64,000 nucleotides of DNA from an uncultured Chloroflexia bacterium (GTDB lineage: Bacteria > Chloroflexota > Limnocylindria > Limnocylindrales > CSP1-4), in assembly GCA_963757865.1 (NCBI GenBank), contig CAVWSU010000004.1, forward strand, positions 23,474-87,473, in the 5' to 3' direction. Positions 2,419 through 15,792 of the stretch are shown piece after piece; within the stretch, counting starts at the first letter, position 1, and each line of letters begins with the position of its first letter. The notes below the pieces were generated by a model. That model ran no database searches, had not been told where the DNA came from, and saw only the letters and a list, made by a program, of their open reading frames with translations. The position numbers and the translations under genes were made by a program.

Positions 2419-3511
2419 ATGAGGCCGATCCGCATCCTGCCGGGCAAGGAGGCGCCGGTCGACGCCCTCGGATCGGTGCTGGTGCGCGACATCTCCGTCG
2501 ACGGAGAGCGGTGGGCGAAGGGGAGGCGCCTGTCGGCCGGCGACCTGGTGCGCCTTGCGGACGGGCACGCCACGGTCGACCTGGGGGCGCGGGGCCGTGA
2601 GTCCGCGGGTCCCGGGACGCGCGACGGCGCGGGCTTCGTTGCCCTGGCACTGGACGAGGGGGACGTGCACGAGGACGAGGCGGCCCTCCGGCTCGCGCAG
2701 GCGATCGCCGGGGCCGGGGTGGAGTTGCGGGGGCCATCGGAGAGCCGCGTCGATTTGCTCGCTGCGGCCCCGGGCGTGCTTCACGTCAGGGCGGAGCGCG
2801 TCGAGCGCATCGACCGGATCGACCCCCTGCAGGTCTTCACGGCGTACGACGGCCAGACGGTCGCCGCCGGCGAGCTCGTGGGCAGCGTGAAGATCGGGCC
2901 GCACGCGGTGGCAGGGGAGGTGCTCGATCGCGGGCTCCTCGCGGCCGGCTCCGGTCCGGCCGTGGTGCGCGTCGCGCCGTTCCTGGAACGGACGGTGGCG
3001 GCCGTGGTCCGGGAGGCGGTACGGCCGGTCGCCCGCGACCGGTTCGAGCGCGGCATCGAGGCCCGGGTCCTCTCGCTCGGCTCGATCCTGACCGGCATCT
3101 CCTACGCGACCGACGCCAGCGGACGTGGCCGGGCACCTCGCGCGGCTCACGCACGGCTCCGATCGCGTGAACCTCGTGCTCACGGCAGGCGCGGCCTCGA
3201 CCGACCCGACCGACCCGTTCTTCGTCGCGATCGAGGGACTCGGCGGCCGCGTGATCCGGCACGGAGTCCCGGCACACCCCGGTTCGATGATCTGGCTCGC
3301 CCGCATCGGCCGCACGGACCTCCTCGGCCTCCCGACCTGCGGCGCGTACTCGCGTGCCACGGCGGTGGACCTGCTGTTGCCGAGGCTCCTGACGGGCGAG
3401 CGCGCGAGCAACCGCATGGCCGCATCGCTCGGACACGGCGGCGTGCTGACGCGCGCCATGCGGTTCCGTTTCCCGCCGTATGCGCGGGAGCTCGAGGCGC
3501 CCGAAGGCTGA
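2419..3511 (+). CDS. Molybdopterin-binding (MoeA/MoCF-biosynthesis-like) protein of the CODH cluster, interrupted by a +1 frameshift at 3121
   Basis: The N-terminal part is in frame 1 (MRPIRILPGKEAPVDALGS ... LTGISYATDAS). After 3120 frame 1 turns into Arg/Pro junk. Frame 2 from 3122 reads DVAGHLARLTHGSDRVNLVLTAGAASTDPTDPFFVAIEGLGG ... PTCGAYSRATAVDLLLPRLL, a molybdopterin-binding domain, with stop at 3509-3511. Confidence 0.7.
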
Positions 3512-3645
3512 TCTCGCGACGTGGGACCGGCGCGGCGGAGCGGTCTCCGGCCGGCGCCGGTGGCATCGTCGGGCGGGCCGTCCGGTCGCGGCGCGACCGT
3601 CCGGGCATCCAGGGGCACGGCCGGTCGCGGTGTAGATTTGCGGGC

Positions 3646-4794
3646 GTGAGCGATCGAGCGTCCCGGCGCCGCGCGACGGCGTCCCCGAACCCTGAAGCTG
3701 CGGTGGCCGGAGAACCGGCCGTCCCCGGCGAACCTGGGGACTCCGGCGAGGCTGCGGCGCCCGCAAACGACGGCCCGGCGGCGGCCTCGTCGATCCAGGA
3801 GCTCACCGACGCGCTTCGCCGGCATGACTACCTGTGCGATCGGTCGCTGGCCACCACCGTGTACCTGTCGCTGCAGCTCGAGCGACCGCTCCTCCTCGAG
3901 GGCGAGGCGGGTGTCGGCAAGACCGAGCTCGCCAAGGTGCTGGCGGACGTGCTCGGCACGCGGCTCATCCGCCTGCAGTGCTACGAGGGGCTCGACGTCA
4001 CGACGGCCGTGTACGAGTGGGACTACGCCCGCCAGATGGTCGAGATCCGGCTGCTCGAGGCACGGGGTGGCGCCGGAGAGACGAGCGCGCGGGACATCTT
4101 CGGCCCGGCGTTCCTGATCCGCCGGCCGCTGCTCCAGGCGCTGGAGTCGCACGAAGGCGCGCCGCCGGTGCTGCTCATCGACGAGATCGATCGCGCCGAC
4201 GAGGAGTTCGAGGCCTACCTGCTCGAGATCCTGTCCGACTTCCAGGTCACCGTGCCGGAGGTCGGCACGATCCGCGCCGAGAGGCCGCCCCGGGTGGTGA
4301 TCACCTCCAACCGCACGCGCGAGGTGCACGACGCCCTGAAGCGGCGCTGCTTCTACCACTGGATCGACTACCCGACGCCGGAGCGCGAGTACGAGATCGT
4401 GCGGGCGCGCGTCCCGGCGGTGCCCGAGCGACTGGCGCATTCGGTGGTCGCGTTCGTGCGGGCGCTGCGCTCGGCCGATCTCACGAAGGTCCCGGGCGTG
4501 GCCGAGACGCTCGACTGGGCGGCGGCGCTGCTGGCGCTCGGCGCCGTGGAACTGGAGCCCGGCGTGATCGACGACACGCTCGGGATCCTCCTCAAGTACG
4601 AGGAGGACGTGAGCGCGGTCCGTGGCGCTCGGGCACAGGCCCTGCTGGCCGCGACGGACGACGATCGGCCAGACGCCGCTCGTTTCGAGGCCGCTCGACC
4701 CGCGGCCGCACGGCCCGAGGCCCCGAGGCCCGAGGCCGCACGGCCCGCAGCCGCACGGCCCGTGGAGGCGCCCGCGCCGCGCCCGGCGGCCTGA
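3646..4794 (+). CDS. coxD: MoxR-type AAA+ ATPase, CoxD-like CODH maturation factor
   Basis: Walker A LLEGEAGVGKTELAK, Walker B VLLIDEIDRADEE, then VVITSNRTREVHDALKRRC. GTG start at 3646, in frame just after the low-GC patch tgtagatttg. The C-terminal tail is an Ala/Pro/Arg repeat (about 4678-4791). Confidence 0.85.
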   Translation: MSDRASRRRATASPNPEAAVAGEPAVPGEPGDSGEAAAPANDGPAAASSIQELTDALRRHDYLCDRSLATTVYLSLQLERPLLLEGEAGVGKTELAKVLADVLGTRLIRLQCYEGLDVTTAVYEWDYARQMVEIRLLEARGGAGETSARDIFGPAFLIRRPLLQALESHEGAPPVLLIDEIDRADEEFEAYLLEILSDFQVTVPEVGTIRAERPPRVVITSNRTREVHDALKRRCFYHWIDYPTPEREYEIVRARVPAVPERLAHSVVAFVRALRSADLTKVPGVAETLDWAAALLALGAVELEPGVIDDTLGILLKYEEDVSAVRGARAQALLAATDDDRPDAARFEAARPAAARPEAPRPEAARPAAARPVEAPAPRPAA

Positions 4795-4799
4795 GGGCG

Positions 4800-6152
4800 A
4801 TGCCTGCCGTGCCAGCGATGCCTGCCATGCCGGCTGAGGGTGCCGTTCGCCCGGCCCTCGTACCACTGGACCCGCCGGGTCATGCCCATGGACGGGCGGT
4901 CGACGGCGAGCTCCTGCTCGCCCGAGCCGTGTCGTTCGCGCGTGCGCTGCGAGCCGCGGGGCTGACTGTCGACACCAACGCGACGATCGACTTCTCGCGG
5001 GCGCTGACGCTGGTGCGGATCGGGGACCGCGACGAGGTGCGCGAGGCGGGCGCGTCGGTGTTCGTCCGGCGCCGCGAGGATCGGCCGATCTACGAGGCGG
5101 TGTTTGCGCGATTCTGGCGTCCCGGGTCTCGCACGATCGGCGGGCCTGCGGCGGCGCCGGCGACACTCATCGACGACAGGGATCCGGTGGAAGCCCCGAC
5201 GGCCGAGCGCGCCCCGGGCGAGGCCGCGGTGTCGGAGGGGGGCGCGAGCGGACCGGAAGGCGAACGGCGCGAGCTGGATGGACCCGGGCCCGACGAATTC
5301 GAGGTGCTCGTGGTCTCGCCACAGGCGTGGAGCCACGACCGGCTCGACCGGCACCGGCAGTTCGACCGGATGACGGGCGCCGAGCTGCGGGAGGCGGAGC
5401 GCTTCGTCGACCTGCTCTCCCCCAACCTCGAGCTGCGTCGCACGCGACGCCGAGAGCTGCACCCGCGGGGCCGGGTGCTCGCCCCCAGGCCGATGTTCCG
5501 GCGCAACCTCAAGACCGGCGGCGACCTCGTGGAATGGGTCTGGCAGCGCAGGGTTCGCCGGCCGCGCACGCTGGTCGTCCTGTGCGACATCTCGGGCTCG
5601 ATGGAGCGGCACTCCCGGCTGCTCCTGCGCTTTGCCCAGGCGCTCGCGGCATCGGCCGTCCGGACAGAGGCCTTCGTGTTCGGGACGCGGCTGACGCGCG
5701 TCACCCGGCTGCTCGACGACCGCGACCGGGATCGCGCCCTCGCGAGGGTGGCGGAGGCGACGACCGACTGGTCGGGCGGGACGCGGATCGGGGATTGCCT
5801 GCGCGAATTCAACCGCCGCTGGGCACGACGCGTGCTCCGTAGCAGCGCGGTCGTGGTGGTGATCAGCGACGGGTGGGACCGGGGAGACCCTGCCGTGGTC
5901 GGCCTCGAGACGGCGCGGCTGCGGCGCTCGTGCCACCGGCTGATCTGGCTCAACCCGCTGGCCAGCTCCCCCGGATATCAGCCGCTCGCCGGAGGCATGG
6001 CCGCCGCGCTTCCCTCGGTGGACGAGTTCGTCGCGGCGGGCACGCTGGCCAGCCTGGAACACCTGGCGGCGCTGCTGTCGGGGCATCGTGGACGCCCGGC
6101 CCGCCGGGCGGCCGGCCTGCCGTGGGTTGCGGCCGGGGAGGCGATCGCATGA
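4800..6152 (+). CDS. coxE: VWA-domain protein, CoxE-like
   Basis: ATG at 4800, 5 nt after the coxD stop. VWA/MIDAS motif LVVLCDISGSM. C-terminal block VVVISDGWDRGDP ... LIWLNPLA is typical of CoxE-family proteins. Confidence 0.85.
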   Translation: MPAVPAMPAMPAEGAVRPALVPLDPPGHAHGRAVDGELLLARAVSFARALRAAGLTVDTNATIDFSRALTLVRIGDRDEVREAGASVFVRRREDRPIYEAVFARFWRPGSRTIGGPAAAPATLIDDRDPVEAPTAERAPGEAAVSEGGASGPEGERRELDGPGPDEFEVLVVSPQAWSHDRLDRHRQFDRMTGAELREAERFVDLLSPNLELRRTRRRELHPRGRVLAPRPMFRRNLKTGGDLVEWVWQRRVRRPRTLVVLCDISGSMERHSRLLLRFAQALAASAVRTEAFVFGTRLTRVTRLLDDRDRDRALARVAEATTDWSGGTRIGDCLREFNRRWARRVLRSSAVVVVISDGWDRGDPAVVGLETARLRRSCHRLIWLNPLASSPGYQPLAGGMAAALPSVDEFVAAGTLASLEHLAALLSGHRGRPARRAAGLPWVAAGEAIA

Positions 6153-7453
6153 AGGAGCTCGTCGAGACGCTCGCCGGCTGGCGCGCCGAGGATCTGGAGG
6201 TCGGGCGTGCCGTGGTCGTCCGCACGTTCGGGTCGGCGCCGCGTCCCGAGGGCGCCGTGCTGCTGCTCGCCTCGGACGGCCGGATCGCGGGGTCCGTCAG
6301 CGGCGGGTGCGTGGAAGGTGCCGCGGCGGACCAGATCCGGCGGGCGCGATCGGACGGACGGTCGCGCGTGATCCGGTACGGCATCAGCGACGAGCAGGCG
6401 TGGGACGTGGGCCTGGCCTGCGGGGGCACGATCGACGTCCTGGTCGAGCCGCTGGTCCGACGGGAGGTCGAAGTGGCGGCGAGGATGGCGGCGGGCCTGG
6501 CCGACGCCGACTCGGGGCCCGGCGCCGACGACCCGGCCGGTGCCGCGGGCGCCAGTGCCGAGAATGCGGCCGCCGGTCGGGCCGACGCCGGCGAACCGGG
6601 CCGTCCGATCAGCCGGTCGCCCGGAGCCTGCGCCGTCGTGACCCCGCTCCCGGCCGATGCGCCGGGACCGGAGATCGGCCCGCACCCGCCCGGCCAGGGC
6701 GAGCCTCCCTCACCGGTGCTCGTGGCATGGGAGGACGGCCGGCTCGACGGGACCCTCGGTGATCCGGCGCTTGACGCGGAGGTCCGGCGGAACGCGGCCG
6801 ACGCGCTCCTGCGTGGCACCTCACGGACGGTCGAGGTCGGCGGGCGATCGCTCTTCATCGAGGCGTTCCCGCGGCGCCCGCGGATCGTGATCGTGGGCGC
6901 GGTGCAGGTCGCGATCCCACTCGTGGCGATCGCCCGGACCATGGGATACGAGACGGTCGTCGTGGACGGGCGGCCGGCGTTCGCGACGCGCGAGCGGTTT
7001 CCCGACGCCGACCGGCTGGTGGTCGGCTGGCCCGACGAGGTGGCCGACGAGATCGGCCTCGGGCCGGCGGACGCGGTGGCCGTCCTGTCGCACGACGTGA
7101 AGTTCGACGAGCCGGCCATCGTGACGGCCCTCGCACGCGGCTGTCGGTACGTGGGGGCCGTGGGGTCGCGACGGACGCAGGCAGATCGACGCGACCGGCT
7201 TCGCGAGGCCGGCGTCCGCGACGAGGATCTGGGGCGGCTGCGCGGGCCGATCGGGCTCGACCTCGGCGGGAGGAATCCCGCCGAGACGGCGCTCGCGATC
7301 ATGTCCGAAGTGGTCGCGGCGCGCTACGGCGGCAGCGGCCGCCCGATGGTGGAGCGATCCCGCGACGGAGCCGCCGGGTCGCAGCTCCCGCCCCCGGCGA
7401 ACGTGCCGGCTGGTCCGGATCGACCGTCGTCCCGGGGCATCGCGGTCCGCTGA
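6149..7453 (+). CDS. XdhC/CoxI family Mo-enzyme maturation protein
   Basis: ATG 6149 overlaps the coxE stop (ATGA). N-domain RAVVVRTFGSAPRPEGAVLLLASDGRIAGSVSGGCVEGA. C-terminal Rossmann-like part PRIVIVGAVQVAIPLVAIA ... GPIGLDLGGRNPAETALAIMSE. About 90 aa of Ala/Gly/Pro-rich insert lies between the domains. Confidence 0.85.
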   Translation: MKELVETLAGWRAEDLEVGRAVVVRTFGSAPRPEGAVLLLASDGRIAGSVSGGCVEGAAADQIRRARSDGRSRVIRYGISDEQAWDVGLACGGTIDVLVEPLVRREVEVAARMAAGLADADSGPGADDPAGAAGASAENAAAGRADAGEPGRPISRSPGACAVVTPLPADAPGPEIGPHPPGQGEPPSPVLVAWEDGRLDGTLGDPALDAEVRRNAADALLRGTSRTVEVGGRSLFIEAFPRRPRIVIVGAVQVAIPLVAIARTMGYETVVVDGRPAFATRERFPDADRLVVGWPDEVADEIGLGPADAVAVLSHDVKFDEPAIVTALARGCRYVGAVGSRRTQADRRDRLREAGVRDEDLGRLRGPIGLDLGGRNPAETALAIMSEVVAARYGGSGRPMVERSRDGAAGSQLPPPANVPAGPDRPSSRGIAVR

Positions 7454-7454
7454 G

Positions 7455-8846
7455 GTGGAGGCCCGTCGGGTCGGTGCCGTCGTCCTCGCCGCCGGCCTGT
7501 CCTCGCGCTTCGGCGCCACCAAGGTCCTTGCCATGCTGGGCGGGCGTCCGATCCTCCAGCACGTCCTCGACGCCGTTGCCGCATCGGGCCTGGGCGAGAC
7601 CGTCGTGGTCCTCGGTATGCGGGCAGACGAGGTCGAGGCGGCGATCCGGTGGCGGGGCGAGCGACGCGTCCGGAACCCGGACCCGGCCGCCGGGCTCTCG
7701 TCGTCGCTCCGTGTCGGGATCGATGCGTTGTCTCCCGACGTCGACGCCGCCCTCATCGTGCTCGGAGACCAGCCGCTGGTCCGTCCCGCCACGATCGCCT
7801 CGCTGCTCCCCGTACTGGAGTCCGGGGATCGAGCCGCCGCCGTCCCCCGGTACGAAGAGGGAGGCGGTCCGAACCCCGTCCTGCTGGGCCGCGCCGCCTG
7901 GCCGCTCGCGTTCGAGACGACCGGCGACCGCGGGCTGGGGCCGCTGCTCCGGGATCACCCCGACATCGTGCGCGACGTGCCCGTCGCCGGCACCAACCCC
8001 GACGTCGACACGCCCGGCGATCTCGCCGCGCTTGCATGGGGGGAGCGCGTGCGCGCGAACCGCGAGCAGGTCGATCGCGTCCGCGAGGTGCCCGACGACG
8101 CGGACTTCTACGCCCCGCTAACCCAGCGATTCCTCGCCGACCCGCGGCGCACCGACGACCCGATCCTCGACCAGATCCTCCCGCTGACTCTGCCCGGGGA
8201 CACGTGGCTCGACATCGGGGCCGGCGCCGGGCGGTTCGCGCTGCCGATTGCACTGCACGTCCACGAGGTGATTGCCGTCGACCCGTCGGCCGGGATGCTT
8301 GCCGCGCTGCGCGAGCAGTCGGCCTCCGCCGGGATCGCGAACGTCCGCACGGTGGAGGTCCGCTGGCCGCCCGACGCGGGGACGGAGGCGGCCGGAATCG
8401 TCGCCGACGTCTCGCTGATCGCGAGCGTGGGCCACGACATCGAGGGGTTCGGCACGTTCCTGGACGCGATGGAGGCGGCGAGCACGCGCCTCTGCGTGGC
8501 GGTGATGTCGGAGCGCCAGCCGTCGGCGGTCGCGGAGCCGTTCTGGCCACGCATTCACGGCGAGGAGCGGGTAACCCTGCCGTCCCTCCCGAGCCTGCTC
8601 GAGCTGCTTCGTGCCAGGGGCCGGCGGGTGGAGCTGACCGTGGTCGAGCAGCCGCTGCGTGGCTATCCCGACGAGGAAACCCTGGTCGAGTTCGTGCGAC
8701 GCCAGCTGTGGATCGCCCCGGGCGGACCGAAGGACCGGCGGCTCCGCGAGCTCGTCCACGCCGACCTCGTCGAACGCGACGGGCTCGTCGGCCTGCGGGG
8801 CGAGTCGCCGCGACGGGTGGGGGTGGCGCGCTGGGAGCCCCGCTGA
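7455..8846 (+). CDS. Fusion protein: MobA/MocA-like molybdenum cofactor nucleotidyltransferase (N-terminal) + class I SAM-dependent methyltransferase (C-terminal)
   Basis: GTG 7455, 1 nt after the xdhC stop. N-terminal motifs are GAVVLAAGLSSRFG, LIVLGDQP and NPDVDTPGDL. The C-terminal half carries SAM motif I LDIGAGAGRFALPIA and VIAVDPSAGML. It is one uninterrupted 463-aa ORF. Confidence 0.8.
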   Translation: MEARRVGAVVLAAGLSSRFGATKVLAMLGGRPILQHVLDAVAASGLGETVVVLGMRADEVEAAIRWRGERRVRNPDPAAGLSSSLRVGIDALSPDVDAALIVLGDQPLVRPATIASLLPVLESGDRAAAVPRYEEGGGPNPVLLGRAAWPLAFETTGDRGLGPLLRDHPDIVRDVPVAGTNPDVDTPGDLAALAWGERVRANREQVDRVREVPDDADFYAPLTQRFLADPRRTDDPILDQILPLTLPGDTWLDIGAGAGRFALPIALHVHEVIAVDPSAGMLAALREQSASAGIANVRTVEVRWPPDAGTEAAGIVADVSLIASVGHDIEGFGTFLDAMEAASTRLCVAVMSERQPSAVAEPFWPRIHGEERVTLPSLPSLLELLRARGRRVELTVVEQPLRGYPDEETLVEFVRRQLWIAPGGPKDRRLRELVHADLVERDGLVGLRGESPRRVGVARWEPR

Positions 8847-9024: not shown

Positions 9025-9189
9025 CCCCGCATCGTTCCTCCGCCTCGGGCGCTGCACGCGCGTCCCCCGTAAGCGCTAGAGGCAACCGGGCGCTCGAGCG
9101 AGCTGCTTGCGATCGCGCCCGCGTGATCGGCGGGCGTCTCCTCTGCCGGCGCAGGCGTGCCGGCTCCGGGTCAGGAGGGCGCCTCGGCG

Positions 9190-10095
9190 ATGATCCCAGC
9201 ACCGTTCGACTACGTTCGGCCGTCGGACATGCCCGACGCGCTCCGGATCCTGAAGGAGCGCGAGGGCGAGGCGAAGGTCCTCTCCGGAGGCTACAGCCTC
9301 ATACCCCTGCTGAAGCTGCGGCTCGCGCAGCCGCCGCTGCTCGTGGACATCGGCGGACTGGCCGGCATGGACGGCATCACGGAGACGGGCGACGAGCTCG
9401 TGATCGGAGCGCGCGCGACGCACCGCCGCATCTTCCAGGCCGAGGCCGTCGCGGCGCGCTACCCGCTGCTGCACGACGCGGCCGGCGGCATCGGGGACCC
9501 GCAGGTCCGCAACTGGGGGACGATCGGCGGCTCCTGCGCGCACGCGGATCCCTCGGCCGACTGGCCGGCCGTCCTCATCGCCTCGCGGGCGACGCTCGTA
9601 TGCCGCAGCCAGGACGGTGAACGCCGCATCGCGGCCCGCGAGTTCTTCCTGGACACGTTCGTCACCGCGATCGAGCCCACCGAGATCCTCACGGAGGTGC
9701 GGATCCCGCGGTCCGGAGAGCGGAGCGGCGGCGCGTACGAGAAGATCGAGCGCAAGGCCGGCGATTTCGCCACGGCGGCCTCCGCGGTGCAGCTGAGGCT
9801 GGGCGCGGACGGACGCATCGAGGACGTCGGGGTCGGGCTCACCGCCGTCGCCGAGACCGCCTTTGCCGCCACGGACGCGGAGCGGGTGCTGGCCGGTGCC
9901 ATGCCGTCGGACGCGCTGTTCCGGCAGGCAGGCGCCGCGGCGGCGGCACAGAGCAGGCCGTCGGCGGATGGGCACGGGCCGGTCGAGTACAAGCGCGCCA
10001 TGGCGGCCGAGATGACCGTCCGGGCCTTGCGCCGGGCGGTCGCCCGGGCGCTCGGTCAGGATGCGCACGGCCCAGTCGGACACGGCGCAGCGTAG
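9190..10095 (+). CDS. coxM: CO dehydrogenase medium (FAD-binding) subunit
   Basis: ATG 9190 preceded by caggaggg. [21 protein letters not shown] ... [17 protein letters not shown] ... [20 protein letters not shown] is the FAD-binding molybdopterin dehydrogenase fold. Sits in coxM-S-L order. Confidence 0.93.
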
Positions 10096-10099
10096 GGGG

Positions 10100-10657
10100 A
10101 TGTCGTCGATGACCACGCAGCACGTGACCGTCACCGTCAACGGCACCGTCCGGGAGGCCGACGTCGAGCCGCGCCTCCTCCTCGTGCACCTGCTCAGGGA
10201 CGTCCTGGGCCTCACCGGCACCCACGTCGGATGCGACACGAGCCACTGCGGGGCGTGCACGGTCCTGCTCGACGGCGCCAGCGCCAAGAGCTGCACCGTC
10301 CTCGCCGTCCAGGCCAGCGGATCGGACATCACGACCATCGAGGGGATGGAGCGCTCCGGCGCGCTGCACCCGCTGCAGCAGGCGTTCTGGGATCAGCACG
10401 GGCTCCAGTGCGGCTTCTGCACGCCGGGCATGATCATGGAATCGGCCTGGCTCCTCTCGCAGAACCCCGACCCCACCGAGCACGAGATCCGCGAAGGGAT
10501 CAGCGGCAACCTCTGCCGTTGCACCGGCTACGTCAACATCGTGAAGGCCGTCCAGCAGGCGGCGGTCGAGCTGCGGGCGCGGTCGGCGGCCCCGGTCGAG
10601 ACGGAGCCGGCCATGGCGGACGCGGGCGGTGCGCAGGCCGCCGGAAGCGCGAGGTAG
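10100..10657 (+). CDS. coxS: CO dehydrogenase small ([2Fe-2S]) subunit
   Basis: Cys motifs [12 protein letters not shown] and [10 protein letters not shown] ... [11 protein letters not shown] lies 4 nt after the coxM stop. Confidence 0.95.
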
Positions 10658-10661
10658 GGAG

Positions 10662-13055
10662 ATGGAGCACGCGCAGGCGCCCACCACCACCCCCGAAGTC
10701 GGAGGCATGGGGCACTCCCTCAAGCGCCGGGAGGACCCGCGCTTCATCCGCGGGAAGGGCGAGTACATCGACGACGTCGTCCTGCCCGGCATGCTCTGGC
10801 TCGACATCGTCCGGAGCCCGTACGCGCACGCCACCATCCGGGGGATCGACGCGTCCGAGGCCCTGAAGGTGCCGGGCGTCCTCGCCGTCATCACCGGCAA
10901 GGACCTCGAGGCCGCGGGGCTCCACTGGATGCCGACGCTCGCGGGCGACCAGCAGATGGTGCTGCCCGTCGACACGGTCATGTACCAGGCCCAGGAGGTC
11001 GCCGCCGTCGTCGCCGAGTCGCGCTATGCCGCGGCCGACGGGGCCGCAGCCGTCCTGGTCGACTACGAGCCGCTCCCGGTGGTGATCGACCCGTTCAAGG
11101 CCATGGACCCGGCGTCCCCGGTGCTCCGGCCGGACCGGGGCCCCGACAAGCAGACCAACCACATCTGGCACTGGGAATCGGGCGACCGGGCGGGCACCGA
11201 CCAGGCGCTGTCGGACGCCGAGGTCGTCGTCAGCGAGGACATCTACATCCCGCGCATCCACGTGGCGTCGATCGAGACGTGCGGCTGCATCGCCGACTGG
11301 GATCCGGTGCGCGAGCACCTGACCGTCCACATGACGACGCAGGCGCCGCACGCCATCCGCACCGTCTTCAGCCTGGTCTCGAAGATCCCCGAGCACAAGA
11401 TCCGGATCAAGACGCACGACATCGGCGGCGGGTTCGGCGGAAAGGTCCCCGTCTACCCCGGGTACGTCCTGGCCGTCGTGGCGTCCCTCACGACCGGGCA
11501 CCCCGTCAAGTGGATCGAGGACCGCTCGGAGAACCTGCAGGCCGACTCGTTCGCCCGCGACTACCACGTGCACGCGGAACTGGCGGCGACGAAGGACGGC
11601 AGGCTCACGGGCCTGCGGGTGAAGACCCTCGCCGACCACGGCTACACCGACGCGGCGGCCGATCCGTCGCGCTTCCCCGCGGGCCTCTTCAACGTGATCA
11701 CCGGGTCGTACGACCTGCCGACGGCGTTCGTCGAGGTCGACGGCGTCTACACCAACAAGCCGCCGGGAGGCGTCGCGTACCGCTGCTCGTTCCGGGTGAC
11801 GGAGGCCGTGCACTCGATCGAGCGGATGGTGGACATCGCGGCACACGAGCTGGGCATCGACCCGGCCGAGATGCGGATGCGCAACTTCATCCAGCCCGAC
11901 CAGTTCCCGTACCTGTCGGCGACCGGCTGGGAGTACGACTCCGGCAACTACCCGGCGGCCCTGCGACGGGCGATGGAGATCATCGACTACGACGGGCTCC
12001 GGCGGGAGCAGGCCGAGAAGCGCGCCCGCGGCGAGCTGATGGGCATCGGGATCAGCAGCTTCACCGAGATCGTGGGCGCGGGTCCGTCGCACACGTTCGA
12101 CATCCTGGGAATCAAGATGTTCGATTCGTGCGAGATCCGGGTCCATCCCACGGGCTCGGCGATCGCGCGCCTCGGCGTGCAGTCGCAGGGCCAGGGCCAC
12201 GAGACGACCTTCGCCCAGATCATCGCCGAGGAACTGGGCATTCCCGCGAAGGACATCACGATCGAGGAGGGCGACACCGACACGGCGCCCTACGGCCTCG
12301 GGACGTACGCCAGTCGCTCGACGCCGACGGCCGGCGCCGCGACCGCCATGGCCGCCCGCAAGCTCCGGGAGAAGGCCCGGCTCATCGCCGCGCACCTGCT
12401 CGAGGCGAACCCCGACGACCTCGAGTGGACGAACGGCAAGTGGAGCGTGAAGGGCTCGCCAGATCGCTTCAAGACGATCCAGGAGATCGCCTTCGCCGCC
12501 TATACGAACCACCCCCAGGGGATGGAGGCCGGCTTCGAGGCGGTCGACTACTACGACCCGCCGAACCTGACCTTCCCCTTCGGAAGCTACATCTGCGTGG
12601 TCGACATCGACAGGGGGACGGGCCAGGTCAAGATCCGGCGCTTCGTGGCGGTGGACGACTGCGGCAACATCATCAACCCGATGATCGTGGACGGCCAGAT
12701 CCACGGCGGCCTCACGATGGGGCTGGCGCCGTCGCTGTACGAGGCCATCGAGTACGACGAGAACGGCAACAACCTTGCCGGGACGTTCCTCGACTACCTC
12801 GTGCCGACCGCGCTCGAGACGCCGAGCTGGGAGACGGACAAGACGGTCACCCCGTCGCCGCACCACCCGATCGGCGCGAAGGGCGTGGGTGAATCCGCGA
12901 CGGTCGGCGCGCCGCCGGCGATCGCCAACGCGGTCGTGGACGCGCTCTGGCACCTGGGCGTGCGCCACGTGGACATCCCGATCACCCCGCAGCGCGTCTG
13001 GGCGATCCTGCAGCGTGCCGAAGGGCAGGCCGCGGACAAGGGGGTGACGGCATAG
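10662..13055 (+). CDS. coxL: Form I CO dehydrogenase large (Mo-Cu, molybdopterin cytosine dinucleotide) subunit
   Basis: 797 aa, RBS gaggtaggga. The active-site loop [14 protein letters not shown] (AYRCSFR at 11775-11795) is the form I signature, as opposed to AYRGAGR of form II. Confidence 0.95.
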
Positions 13056-13156
13056 GCCTCTCTCCCGGAGCCGTCGCGCACCCGGCGGCGCTGCTCGCCC
13101 GCGCCGCCGAGCTCGCCGCCGCGGAGCGGCCGTTCGCGCTGGCGACGGTCGTCGCG

Positions 13157-14240
13157 GTGCGTCGCCCGACGTCGGCGAAGCCGGGAGCGCACGGCATCAT
13201 CCATCCGGACCGGACGATCGAGGGCTGGGTCGGCGGAAGCTGTGCCCAGCCCATCGTCGTCCGAGAGGCGCTCCGCTCGCTCGAGGACGGCCAGCCGCGC
13301 CTGCTGCGCCTGTCCCCGGAGGGCACGTCCGAGGGTCAGCGGGCCGACGGCGTGCTCGAGTTCGTCATGACGTGCCACTCCAGGGGGACCCTCGAGGTGT
13401 ACGTCGAGCCGCATCTGCCGAGGCCGGCGCTGTGGGTGGCGGGAACAACGCCGATCGCGGCGGCACTCGTGGAGCTCGGCGCGTCCGCGGGATACCGGGT
13501 GACGCTCGTGGACCGCGCCGCCGCCGCGGATCCCGGAGCGTTCCCCGCCGCCGACCGGGTGCTGGGGGAGATCGACCTGGCCGATCTGGACCCGGACGTC
13601 ACGCCGTCCATCGTGGTTGCGACGCAGGGCCAGTGGGACGAGGACGCGCTGGATCGGGCGCTGCGTCGGGACCGCGTGGGATACGTGGGACTGATCGCGT
13701 CGCCCCTGCGGGCCGAGGCCGTCCGCGACTACCTCCGCGACGTCGGGATCCCCGAGGAACGGCTCGTGGCCCTGCACGCGCCCGCGGGGCTCGACCTGGG
13801 GGCGGAGACACCCGAGGAGGTCGCGCTGTCGATCCTCGCGGAGCTGGTGCAGCTGCGCCGGCAGGGCAGGGCGGCGAACGCAGCGACCGCGGCCGGCCCG
13901 TCCGCGCATCCGGGCCCGGTGCCCATCGCGATGGTCGCCGTCCCACGCGGCGTGGCCGCGGAAGGCCCGGGCGTGCGGGTTGCCGGCCCCGCGCCCGACG
14001 GCCCGGCCCGCCAGGAGCCCGTGCCGGATCCGGCAACACTCCGTGCGGCGGCGCCCGACATGGTGCTCGTCGATCCCGTCTGCGGCATGACCGTGGACCC
14101 CGCGGACGTCCGTCACACGGCCGAGCACGACGGAATCGACCTATGCCTTCTGCTGCGCGCCGTGCCGCCGGCAGTTCACGAAGAACCCCGACGCGTTCCT
14201 TGCCGAGGCGCTCGCGGCCGAGGCAGCCACGCCGGCCTGA
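13157..14240 (+). CDS. XdhC-like maturation protein fused to a C-terminal YHS/TRASH metal-binding domain; +1 frameshift at 14135 and unresolved start
   Basis: XdhC motifs WVGGSCAQP and PALWVAGTTPIAAALVELG ... APAGLDLGAETPEEVALSILAE. The tail reads DPVCGMTVDPADVRHTAEHDG in frame 2. Dropping one A of GGAA (14132-14135) continues it as STYAFCCAPCRRQFTKNPDAFL in frame 3, with stop at 14238-14240. XdhC N-terminal homology (AALLARAAELAAAERPFALATVV) extends upstream to about 13058, where frame 2 has no ATG/GTG/TTG. Confidence 0.75.
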
Positions 14241-14265
14241 CCGGCCACCGCTCGAGAGGAGACAC

Positions 14266-14727
14266 ATGCACTTTTCCGGCACCGTCGAGATCAGGGCTCC
14301 CCGGGACCGCGTGTGGGCGTTCGTGATCGACCCCGACCAGGTGGGCGGATGCGGCCCGGGCGTGGAGAGCATCGAGGTGACCGACGAGACGCACTTCCGT
14401 GCGCGCGCCAAGGTCGGCGTCGGCTTCATCAGCGCCCGCTTCGTGGTCGATCTCGTGATGGTGGAGCGCCAGCCGCCGGACCGTGCCGTGATCCGTGCCC
14501 ACGGCCAGGCGCCCGGCAGCGCCGTGGATGCGACCGCGTCGATGACCCTGCGCGACGGCCCGGACGGCTCGACCGCGATGGACTGGGTGGCGGATGTCAC
14601 GATTGCCGGTACCATCGCGTCCGTGGGTGCACGGCTCATCGAGGGAACGGCGAACAGGATGATCGGCCAGACATTCGACTGCATGCGAACGAAACTCGAG
14701 GAGCCGGCGGCCCTCCCGGCCGGCTGA
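14266..14727 (+). CDS. coxG: CoxG / SRPBCC carbon monoxide dehydrogenase subunit G family protein
   Basis: ATG 14266 after gagaggagac. [37 protein letters not shown] ... [23 protein letters not shown] is a typical CoxG pattern. Confidence 0.9.
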
Positions 14728-15792
14728 TGCCGCGACCCGGCGACCCTGCCTCCCCCGCGCCCGCTTCCGCCCTGGCGCCCGACGCGCTCGTCCGGGACCG
14801 GCTCGGACGGCGCCTGCACGACCTGCGCATCTCGGTCACCGACCGATGCAACTTCCGCTGCACGTACTGCATGCCGAAGGAGATCTTCGGGCGCGATTAC
14901 GCGTTCCTGCCGCGCGCCGAGATCCTCACGTTCGAGGAGATCGCCCGCCTCGCCCGCATCTTCGCGGGCCGCGGCGTGAGCAAGCTCCGCATCACCGGCG
15001 GCGAGCCGCTCGTGCGGCGCGACCTGCCCGACCTGGTGCGCCAGCTTGCCGCGATCGAGGGCATCGACGACATCGCGCTGACCACCAACGGTGCGCTCCT
15101 GCGAGCGCAGGCGCCCGCCCTGCGCGAGGCGGGCCTCCGGCGCGTCACCGTCAGCCTGGATTCCCTCGACGACGCGGTCTTCGGCGCCATGAACGGCGTC
15201 CAGTTCCCGGTCGCCCGCGTGCTCGACGGGATCCGGGCCGCGCAGGCCGCGGGCCTCAGCCCGGTCAAGGTCAACATGGTGGTCAAGCGCGGGGTCAACG
15301 AGGACAGCGTGCTGCCGATGGCGCGGCATGCCCGCGACAACGGCCTGGTCCTGCGGCTCATCGAGTACATGGACGTAGGGCAGTCCAACGGCTGGCGGCT
15401 CGAGGACGTGGTGCCCGCGTCGGAGCTGGTCGACACGATCGCCGTCGAGTTCCCGCTCGACGCCGTCCCGCCGTCGTACCCGGGCGAGGTCGCGACGCGC
15501 TGGCGGTACGCGGACGGGTCCGGGGAGATCGGCGTGATCAGCTCGGTCACGGAGCCGTTCTGCGGGGCCTGCACGCGCGCACGCATCTCCGCGAAGGGCG
15601 AGCTGTTCACGTGCCTGTTCGCGGCGTCCGGCCTGGACCTGCGGGCCCTCGTGCGCGGAGGCGCCTCCGACGACGAGATCGACGACGGCGATCGCGGGCC
15701 GGTGGCGCCGCCGGACGGACCGCTATTCGGAGCTGCGTTCGGCCGAGACGGTGGGGCTGCGGCGCGTCGAGATGTTCGCGATCGGGGGCTGA
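14727..15792 (+). CDS. moaA: GTP 3',8-cyclase MoaA (radical SAM), with a +1 frameshift at 15687
   Basis: ATG 14727 overlaps the coxG stop. Radical-SAM motif [10 protein letters not shown], plus [21 protein letters not shown]. After DDEIDD the given frame becomes junk and runs to 15977. Skipping G15687 gives [34 protein letters not shown], ending in the conserved C-terminal Gly-Gly, with stop at 15790-15792. Confidence 0.88.

Follow-up and report, generated by a model that had tools for sequence, protein, structure and literature searches.

A CoxF-type maturation factor with a tethered YHS domain, a candidate copper donor, encoded beside form I coxL in an uncultured Chloroflexia bacterium

In Oligotropha carboxidovorans, mutants in coxE and coxF were found to make a carbon monoxide dehydrogenase (CODH) with sulfurated Mo and no Cu, and CoxF was proposed as a Cu escort (Pelzmann, 2014; PMC4240915) with the stretch 'MCPSHGTM' as its Cu site (Pelzmann et al., PMC4240915). 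The Oligotropha model of Cu delivery to the Mo-S-Cu site rests on motif spotting in CoxF (PMC4240915). A mycobacterial YHS domain was shown to confer specific responsiveness to Cu2+ at 1-10 uM, the proposed ligands being one Asp and three Cys (Linder, 2015; PMC4626032). Here we describe a gene, coxF-YHS, that joins both elements in one protein and lies directly after coxL in a 64,000-nucleotide (nt) stretch of DNA from an uncultured Chloroflexia bacterium (GenBank assembly GCA_963757865.1, contig CAVWSU010000004.1, positions 23,474 to 87,473), the whole of which is called the window below and has a G+C content of 72%. Sequence comparison indicates that the gene encodes a CoxF orthologue extended by a linker and a YHS domain. 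We propose, with a probability of about 0.6, that its product is a CoxF-type assembly factor of form I Mo-Cu CODH whose tethered YHS domain hands over Cu and whose translation begins at a near-cognate codon.

The gene and its parts, with domain limits taken from the product after removal of one extra base (the repaired product), are as follows.

13052 to 14240, + strand: coxF-YHS gene, XdhC-family maturation factor plus linker plus YHS domain, split by one extra base
13115 to 13309, + strand: XdhC_CoxI N-terminal domain with the GGSCAQP Cys (Pfam PF02625, 4.1e-19, repaired residues 21-85)
13430 to 13846, + strand: XdhC_C Rossmann-like domain (Pfam PF13478, 8.1e-31, repaired residues 126-264)
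13847 to 14068, + strand: Pro/Ala-rich variable linker (gap-rich, non-conserved alignment columns)
14069 to 14201, + strand: YHS domain (DPVCGMTV...RH...YAFCCAPC), cut by the frameshift (Pfam PF04945, repaired product)

Counted from 13055, the last base of the coxL stop codon (TAG 13053-13055), the XdhC frame reads ...GWVGGSCAQP...MTCHSRGTLEVYVEP... up to ...VDPVCGMTVDPADVRHTAEHDGI, beyond which it turns into DLCLLLRAV... and continues inside coxG to 14326. The uncorrected open reading frame (ORF) 13157-14326 accordingly contains ...AEHDGIDLCLLLRAV..., whereas the +1 frame gives ...STYAFCCAPCRRQFTKNPDAFLAEALAAEAATPA (past the break, ...TYAFCCAPCRRQFTKNPDAFLAEALAAEAATPA) and ends with the TGA at 14238-14240. 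An earlier note on this DNA, made from the letters alone, had recognized an XdhC-like gene with a GGSCAQP motif directly after coxL and had proposed profile searches for XdhC_CoxI, XdhC_C and YHS; this description holds, and all three domains were found on the repaired product, XdhC_CoxI with 68.7 bits (cut-off 24.3), XdhC_C with 107.6 bits (cut-off 29.7) and, once G14138 is removed, YHS with 34.0 bits (3e-8, cut-off 30.3). YHS scores of intact relatives are higher, 58 bits in T. roseum for example. The 3' half of the YHS domain by itself scores 16.3 bits, no YHS match is obtained in Pfam with the shifted product as it stands, and no NCBIfam equivalog reaches its cut-off on the XdhC-YHS protein. 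The public protein from this gene (P0001, 389 amino acids) corresponds exactly to the shifted ORF, with the GTG 13157 start and the shifted-frame end, and thus the frameshift is present in the public record and was not introduced into the window; as annotated, P0001 has no YHS match and a shortened XdhC_CoxI match (42 bits, profile positions 18-66). The note had further placed the stop codon 25 nt ahead of the ribosome-binding site of coxG, which needed amending, as the 25 nt extend to the coxG ATG (14266) and only about 13 nt separate the stop from the ribosome-binding-site-like GAGAGGAGA.

The C-terminal domain had been called YHS/TRASH, of which the first half stands and the second does not. 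The candidate ligand set of a YHS domain, D, C, C, C (D-P-V-C-G-M ... F-C-x3-C), is complete in the window protein. The strict TRASH pattern, said to go back to Ettema and colleagues in 2003, is reportedly C-x2-C-x19-22-C-x3-C, and the window protein departs from it in that its first pair, C-G-M, consists of one Cys and a Met; the Pfam model TRASH_HVO_1752_C likewise stays below its cut-off of 27 with 25.6 bits. Because the four-Cys pattern is absent, we classify the domain as YHS, a TRASH-related variant.

Several lines of evidence identify the protein, more precisely than the general XdhC-like CODH maturation factor of the earlier note, as CoxF. It shares 40% identity over 272 amino acids (E 1e-47) with O. 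carboxidovorans CoxF, and in tblastn searches of the window CoxF of this species matched the gene with 173 bits and 41% identity, compared to 55 bits and 25% for CoxI, which is better matched by the other XdhC gene of the window (6179-7453). In a neighbour-joining tree built on 260 columns of the XdhC core, CoxF and the YHS-bearing proteins grouped apart from CoxI-like paralogues. The gene also shares a form I cox cluster with coxD, coxE, coxMSL and coxG, and in Paraburkholderia aromaticivorans, where the order is coxMSL-coxG-coxD-coxE-XdhC(YHS)-mocA-...-XdhC, it is the YHS protein that is encoded in the position of coxF, behind coxD and coxE. The closer similarity to CoxF than to CoxI, together with this position in Paraburkholderia, forms the basis for the CoxF orthology.

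The frame break was evaluated by comparison with two relatives of about 93% DNA identity to the window, L001, a JGI metagenome contig whose 355-amino-acid product P0002 is intact, and L002, the ENA entry 'contig_60780'. Two features are relevant here.

14138, + strand: extra G causing the frameshift (ggaatc[G]acctat; missing from L001 and L002)
14727 to 15792, + strand: moaA, which has a lone 1-nt insertion of its own near 15686 (Pfam Radical_SAM and Mob_synth_C)

That a single extra base breaks the frame had been recognized before, at position 14135; since one G of ggaatc[G]acctat is missing from both relatives, the base is instead placed three positions further on, at G14138, and the corrected reading becomes HDG-I-TYAFCC, the same as in intact P0002, and not HDG-S-TYAFCC. 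The 34 codons after the shift encode the amino acids of P0002; relative to L001 they show 6 changes that are synonymous and 0 that are not, relative to L002 5 synonymous changes and 1 non-synonymous change. The insertion in moaA (GACGA[C]GGCG), 1.5 kb off, replaces a conserved C-terminal tail by a 97-residue junk extension to 15977, and without it the C-terminus is identical to that of L001, ending ...VEMFAIGG*; it is probably a second assembly error, no more than 1.6 kb from the first. In addition, coxM, coxS and coxL are shattered across frames in L002 and in several metagenome-assembled genome (MAG) loci of the type 'MFD...bin / contig_N', and the frame break of L002 ahead of its YHS domain falls in a G6/C5 homopolymer stretch, as is typical of long-read errors, suggesting that indel errors are common in such public MAGs and able to mimic pseudogenes. 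Based on the relatives without the base, the exclusively synonymous changes relative to L001, the lone insertion in moaA and the frame-broken long-read MAGs, the extra G14138 is very probably an assembly error, and coxF-YHS is almost certainly intact in the living organism. If the frameshift were real instead, CoxF would have a destroyed YHS domain and a junk tail of 63 residues running into coxG, and would either function like a YHS-less CoxF or be a fresh pseudogene. The base is indeed part of the deposited sequence and of P0001, L002 is likewise broken before its YHS domain, and a YHS-less CoxF is functional in Oligotropha; against these stand the conservation of the 34 codons, the similar damage to moaA, the error-prone setting of the break in L002 and the presence of the YHS domain in frame in all 80 loci of other genomes described below, which together make a real frameshift improbable.

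Programmed frameshifting at 14138 was also considered and rejected, as relatives lack the extra base, no slippery or stall motif is present and a +1 shift would be required. The hexamer ATCGAC, found at or near both insertions, was not used as evidence, being a common motif (99 copies, an Ile-Asp codon pair). Frame plots of G+C at third codon positions (GC3) proved too insensitive, missing both known frame breaks, and no genome-wide error rate is claimed from them. Split coxM, coxS and coxL genes were seen in the long-read-style MAG contigs L002, L010, L012 and L032, and an in-frame TAG within the coxL 3' end in L091.

Far from being confined to this genome, the fusion is the common form of CoxF, with more than 3000 database matches. 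A protein search returned 3023 matches at E <= 1e-3 among 8000 scored candidates, and among the 120 matches listed almost all combined PF02625, PF13478 and PF04945 at 56-86% identity. Species-representative genomes contained at least 556 confirmed relatives, of which 80 genome-scan loci were kept; these derive from Chloroflexota, Acidobacteriota, Myxococcota, Gemmatimonadota, Deinococcota, Dormibacterota, Bacteroidota, Gammaproteobacteria and Actinomycetota, the last including Streptomyces, Nocardioides, Amycolatopsis, Actinoplanes and Cryobacterium. The motif DPVCGMTV...[FYW]C-x3-C was in frame with the XdhC body in 80 of these 80 loci, and overall the fusion occurs across about ten phyla, archaea included. 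Its individual parts (the XdhC family, CoxF, YHS) are known, and the fusion has been deposited by the thousands as 'XdhC family protein' or 'xanthine dehydrogenase accessory factor'; the architecture itself appears to be undescribed. In the open-access literature, no paper was found that treats XdhC or CoxF together with YHS, TRASH with carbon monoxide dehydrogenase, or YHS with CoxL.

The earlier note had treated a lack of preferential linkage between XdhC-YHS fusions and form I coxL as grounds for abandoning the copper proposal, and the linkage was found to be nearly complete. Among 82 metagenome and genome-scan loci (L001-L082), coxL with an (A/S)Y[RA]CSFR loop lay directly upstream of the fusion in 56 and elsewhere in the locus in 6, a coxL 3' fragment lay directly upstream at the contig edge in 9, the flanks were too short for assessment in 9, and 2 (L021 and L054) had no coxL within the flanks. 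Form I coxL (62) or a coxL fragment (9) thus adjoins the fusion in 71 of the 73 assessable loci. The same linkage exists in annotated replicons of Thermomicrobium roseum (Thermomicrobia), Paraburkholderia (Betaproteobacteria), Deinococcus (Deinococcota) and Natronorubrum (Haloarchaea), in all four of which the NCBI annotation pipeline (PGAP) has labelled the adjacent gene 'aerobic carbon-monoxide dehydrogenase large subunit'. No case of the fusion next to a form II or xanthine-dehydrogenase-type enzyme was seen in the loci examined. Many loci, especially those of Actinomycetota, carry coxD and coxE within the 8-kb flanks, often directly downstream. The 8 kb to each side of the fusion contain no coxL in L021 (8001-8954) and L054, although coxD follows the fusion directly in L054; the ORFs picked at L021 gave no Pfam match.

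Among the lineages compared, CoxF without a YHS domain was seen in Alphaproteobacteria only: in Oligotropha, Bradyrhizobium, Shinella and Roseivivax, CoxF ends after XdhC_C. These YHS-less proteins form one clade in the neighbour-joining tree (bootstrap 94), which is nested in a proteobacterial clade (bootstrap 93) together with YHS-bearing proteins of Paraburkholderia and a gammaproteobacterial MAG, and the proteobacterial proteins with and without YHS are all separate from the CoxI-like outgroups. The parsimonious reading of this tree would be a single loss of the YHS domain in Alphaproteobacteria. Since the YHS-less clade is nested among YHS-bearing proteins, Oligotropha, the model organism, would therefore represent the exception.

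Across 117 homologues the YHS domain keeps its D, C, M, H, C and C without exception; in full, the invariant residues of this domain are the Asp, Cys and Met of DPVCGM, followed by R-H and by Y-A-F-C and C-R, and in the XdhC body the same invariance is seen for GGxC and of the C-H-S of MTCHSGG, which aligns with the 'MCPSHGTM' stretch of O. carboxidovorans CoxF. An AlphaFold2 model of the intact relative P0002, calculated with the 117-sequence alignment, had a mean predicted local distance difference test score (pLDDT) of 87, with values above 90 for the XdhC body as well as for the YHS domain (residues ~297-340) and below 50 for linker residues 268-293. According to this model, the Pro/Ala linker of about 70 residues is a disordered, flexible tether. 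The linker is the sole hypervariable part of the alignment, and the length of the tether evolves fast. An 81-nt in-frame indel in the linker (window 13933-14014) distinguishes the window from L001, and the linker of L002 is longer still.

We suggest that the XdhC body would dock on folded apo-CODH, or on its sulfurated Mo site carrying molybdopterin cytosine dinucleotide (Mo-MCD), as was proposed for CoxF, and that the tethered YHS domain would capture Cu(I) via the invariant Asp, the three Cys and Met/His. The Cu could then be passed to Mo-SH, either directly or via conserved Cys/His of the XdhC body (GGSC, TCHS), completing the [CuSMoO2] cluster. On this view the YHS domain, held on its tether, would take up Cu(I) and deliver it in the final step of building [CuSMoO2]. 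A different role would follow if the YHS domain were a sensor or gate, whose binding of Cu or another metal allosterically switches the XdhC body or its contact with CoxD/CoxE when Cu is available, the Cu itself coming from elsewhere. The only biochemically studied YHS domain that was found does act as a Cu-dependent switch, in an adenylyl cyclase (PMC4626032), and the Cu insertion supported by YHS-less CoxF in Oligotropha implies a different Cu route at least there. However, the long disordered tether better suits a swinging hand-off arm, the cyclase linker being just 8 residues long, and the fusion is strictly associated with the one enzyme family that needs Cu insertion; a sensor or gate is thus considered unlikely. 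Still less probable is a role of the YHS domain that does not involve Cu, be it as a structural Zn ribbon, as a protein adaptor (docking to CoxL, CoxE or the membrane) or as a Cys-persulfide sulfur carrier for the mu-sulfido ligand. In line with such a role XdhC proteins protect or deliver the sulfurated cofactor (PMC4240915), and a TRASH-type fold is also seen in the Zn ribbon of ribosomal protein eL24, to which the only, weak, PDB sequence matches point. The retention of Asp, Cys-Gly-Met and Cys-x3-Cys, however, favours soft Cu(I) over a four-Cys Zn site, and form II and xanthine-dehydrogenase-type enzymes, beside which no fusion was found in the loci examined, need sulfuration and not Cu.

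The start of coxF-YHS is the second unusual property of the locus, and three features of the junction with coxL bear on it.

13038 to 13047, + strand: Shine-Dalgarno (SD)-like AAGGGGGTGA in the coxL 3' end, conserved in L001, L002, L088, L089, L090 and L022
13052 to 13054, + strand: ATA, best candidate initiation codon, overlapping the coxL TAG (ATAG); the sole near-cognate codon at proper SD spacing
13091 to 13093, + strand: CTG, alternative candidate start (TTG in L001 and L090), where the JGI gene calls for P0002 and P0010 begin

In the XdhC frame no ATG, GTG or TTG is found upstream of GTG 13157, as had been noted before, though the frame is open from 12893. The usual start in the family is an ATG or GTG that lies 21-24 nt upstream of the codon aligning with R16 in ...ARAAEL, a position at which neither codon is present in the window, L001 or L002, and the lack of a canonical start is real and common to relatives. 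The ATAG junction is shared by L001 and L002, and junctions of this kind recur in independent, mostly short-read assemblies, ATAG in L088, L089, L090 and L019, CTGA in L004 and L009 and GTAG in L022; in L088 and L089 the ATA stands exactly where other members of the family carry ATG or GTG. In several members the near-cognate codon overlaps the coxL stop by 4 nt and follows an SD-like AAGGGG or GAAAGG at 5-7 nt; in the window 7 nt separate the GGGGG core from ATA 13052. This junction pattern suggests termination-coupled initiation at AUA, CUG or GUA. ATA and CTG are rare initiators in NCBI translation table 11. Whether ATA 13052 or CTG 13091 is used, initiation would be non-canonical and probably coupled to coxL termination; our best guess is AUA 13052, in the AUAG behind a strong SD, to which we assign not quite even odds, followed at some distance by CTG 13091, which is a less probable choice and has no SD at proper spacing before it, while the remainder falls to GTG 13157, an improbable start, and to starts elsewhere. 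For the initiation that had earlier been called unexplained, the lack of a canonical start is thus upheld, and near-cognate AUA or CUG initiation coupled to coxL termination, a pattern seen in independent relatives, now offers a likely explanation.

A rival reading takes the annotated GTG 13157 as the true start and the homology upstream of it as a non-translated relic. This GTG is the first canonical start codon, and a start of this type was chosen by gene callers for P0001, P0004, P0006 and P0073. In every homologue, however, its Val lies inside the protein, as a conserved part of the ATVVAV strand, no SD lies ahead of this codon, and 10 of the 12 substitutions in 13055-13156 among the window, L001 and L002 are synonymous third-position changes, from the first codons after the coxL stop onward. 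Moreover, helix 1 and strand 1, confidently modelled in P0002 (pLDDT 96-97), would be lost from a protein begun at GTG 13157, and the XdhC_CoxI Pfam score would fall from 69 to 42 bits, which makes this start very improbable.

A CoxL-CoxF fusion via a -1 frameshift, conceivable since the XdhC frame is open from 12893, was rejected, as an X XXY YYZ site is lacking ahead of the stop and the junction in most relatives contains a spacer or an in-frame stop. The XdhC-frame codon over the conserved 'V-W' codons of coxL (12998-13000) is always NTG, CTG in the window, and in P0007, P0031, P0038, P0045, P0049 and P0092 it is ATG or GTG and was called as the start, with a 57-nt overlap. At junctions of the near-cognate type gene callers shorten the protein or extend it into coxL.

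Returning to the proposed explanation as a whole, a Cu-donating CoxF with a near-cognate start, a number of points weigh against it. Weak PDB sequence matches, the only ones obtained for the YHS part, are to the Zn ribbon of eL24, and YHS/TRASH folds are also found as structural Zn ribbons. The two loci L021 and L054 among the 73 assessable ones have no coxL in their flanks, the frameshift could be real, CTG 13091 (TTG in L001 and L090) is a serious alternative start, and the SD-like motif also codes for the conserved CoxL residues E/D-K-G-V. The YHS domain is not mechanistically indispensable, because alphaproteobacterial CoxF works without it. Finally, we infer Cu binding and Cu donation by CoxF-YHS from the lack of Cu in CODH of the coxF mutant (PMC4240915) and from the response of a YHS domain to Cu2+ (PMC4626032). 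A more far-reaching version, in which CoxF-YHS would be the ancestral and predominant Cu insertase, its YHS domain a dedicated Cu(I) donor, the Oligotropha CoxF a form derived by loss, and near-cognate AUAG/CUGA/GUAG starts a property of several lineages, is put forward tentatively, with the odds somewhat against it.

The remaining genes of the cluster in the window were identified with O. carboxidovorans pHCG3 proteins as probes and by profile matches.

3829 to 4794, + strand: coxD-like MoxR/AAA+ ATPase, start provisional (tblastn 54% identity to O. carboxidovorans CoxD; Pfam AAA_5, AAA, AAA_3; ORF open from 2419)
4794 to 6152, + strand: coxE-like VWA protein, start approximate (Pfam VWA_CoxE 5.9e-60; 41% identity to O. 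carboxidovorans CoxE residues 194-397)
6179 to 7453, + strand: second XdhC paralogue without YHS, CoxI/Rv0376c-like (within ORF 5873-7453; best window match to O. carboxidovorans CoxI)
7455 to 8846, + strand: mocA-like nucleotidyltransferase fused to an S-adenosylmethionine (SAM) methyltransferase domain (Pfam NTP_transf_3 1.5e-32, Methyltransf_25)
9157 to 10095, + strand: coxM, flavin adenine dinucleotide (FAD) subunit, ORF coordinates (Pfam FAD_binding_5, CO_deh_flav_C)
10061 to 10657, + strand: coxS, [2Fe-2S] subunit, ORF coordinates (Pfam Fer2_2, Fer2)
10629 to 13055, + strand: coxL, form I Mo-Cu CO dehydrogenase large subunit, probable start ATG 10662 (TIGR02416, AYRCSFR)
14266 to 14727, + strand: coxG (Pfam COXG 1.3e-34)

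The assignment of coxL to form I Mo-Cu enzymes follows from its NCBIfam TIGR02416 score (1236.8 bits, cut-off 991.15) and from the active-site loop AYRCSFR at residues 383-389 of the ORF product. The second XdhC paralogue, located between coxE and mocA, contains two XdhC_CoxI stretches and XdhC_C (Pfam, 9e-39) and resembles the Mycobacterium smegmatis Rv0376c homologue 2WE7. The fusion of this MocA-like cytidylyltransferase to a methyltransferase domain (463 amino acids) is also present in L001 and L002. Directly upstream of coxD and in the same frame lies an open frame of 470 codons (2419-3828) with no Pfam match, for which the GC3 frame plot hints at mixed frames and which could be an unknown gene or a further frame problem.

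Apart from the probable assembly error and the non-canonical start, this copy of the gene shows nothing unusual. Atmospheric CO oxidisers belong mostly to Actinomycetota, Chloroflexota and similar phyla, not to Alphaproteobacteria, and in lineages of the former kind CoxF bears a recognisable metal-binding domain on a flexible arm, which provides a concrete candidate for the Cu donor and could help to explain the accessory genes required for active CODH in heterologous hosts. Non-canonical coupled initiation would fit a factor required in small amounts. Public annotation conceals coxF-YHS behind the generic name 'XdhC family protein', in this record with both the start and the C-terminus wrong, and indels in long-read MAGs can pass for domain loss.

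Compared with CoxF of O. carboxidovorans OM5 (pHCG3, WP_013913733.1, 280 amino acids), the window protein has the same XdhC_CoxI and XdhC_C domains and similar Cys motifs (GGGC and MCPSHGT in Oligotropha, GGSC and TCHSRGT in the window), and each gene belongs to a form I cox cluster that also includes coxD, coxE and coxG. However, the Oligotropha protein ends right after XdhC_C, lacking linker and YHS domain, its gene follows coxD-coxE while that of the window follows coxL, and in the tree it falls into the YHS-less alphaproteobacterial subclade beside YHS-bearing beta- and gammaproteobacterial proteins. The XdhC body can also be compared with a solved structure, since the best match of the P0002 model in Foldseek is 2WE7/2WE8, the M. 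smegmatis Rv0376c homologue, which has the same fold (Foldseek E 7e-20; phmmer 1.3e-27) and is likewise a cofactor chaperone for molybdenum hydroxylases. In contrast to the window protein, XdhC proteins of xanthine dehydrogenase systems and of the Rv0376c type have no YHS domain and serve sulfuration and insertion of the molybdenum cofactor, not Cu, and the window carries its own paralogue of the Rv0376c type at 6179-7453. The YHS domain, in turn, shares the signature of one Asp and three Cys with the YHS/TRASH domains of Cu-ATPase N-termini and of the Mycobacterium phlei adenylyl cyclase (PMC4626032). As in this cyclase, the YHS domain of the window is a C-terminal fusion to an enzyme or chaperone body; in the window this partner is an XdhC-family chaperone, and the tether comprises about 70 residues compared to 8 in the M. 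phlei cyclase. A counterpart from a cultured CO oxidiser is WP_143714800.1 of T. roseum DSM 5159, which bears the generic annotation 'XdhC family protein' and on which no experiment was found. It has the same three-part architecture (YHS 58 bits), is encoded directly after coxMSL and shares 38% identity with the window protein; the two represent one family, with equivalents in Paraburkholderia, Deinococcus, Natronorubrum and Streptomyces. Unlike in the window, an 83-nt spacer precedes the canonical ATG of the T. roseum gene, and the linker of its product is shorter. On the T. roseum megaplasmid (L083, 5085-9915) the XdhC-YHS gene is the sole accessory gene by coxMSL, with no coxD, coxE or coxG within 9 kb, making T. 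roseum a convenient minimal system for the YHS domain.

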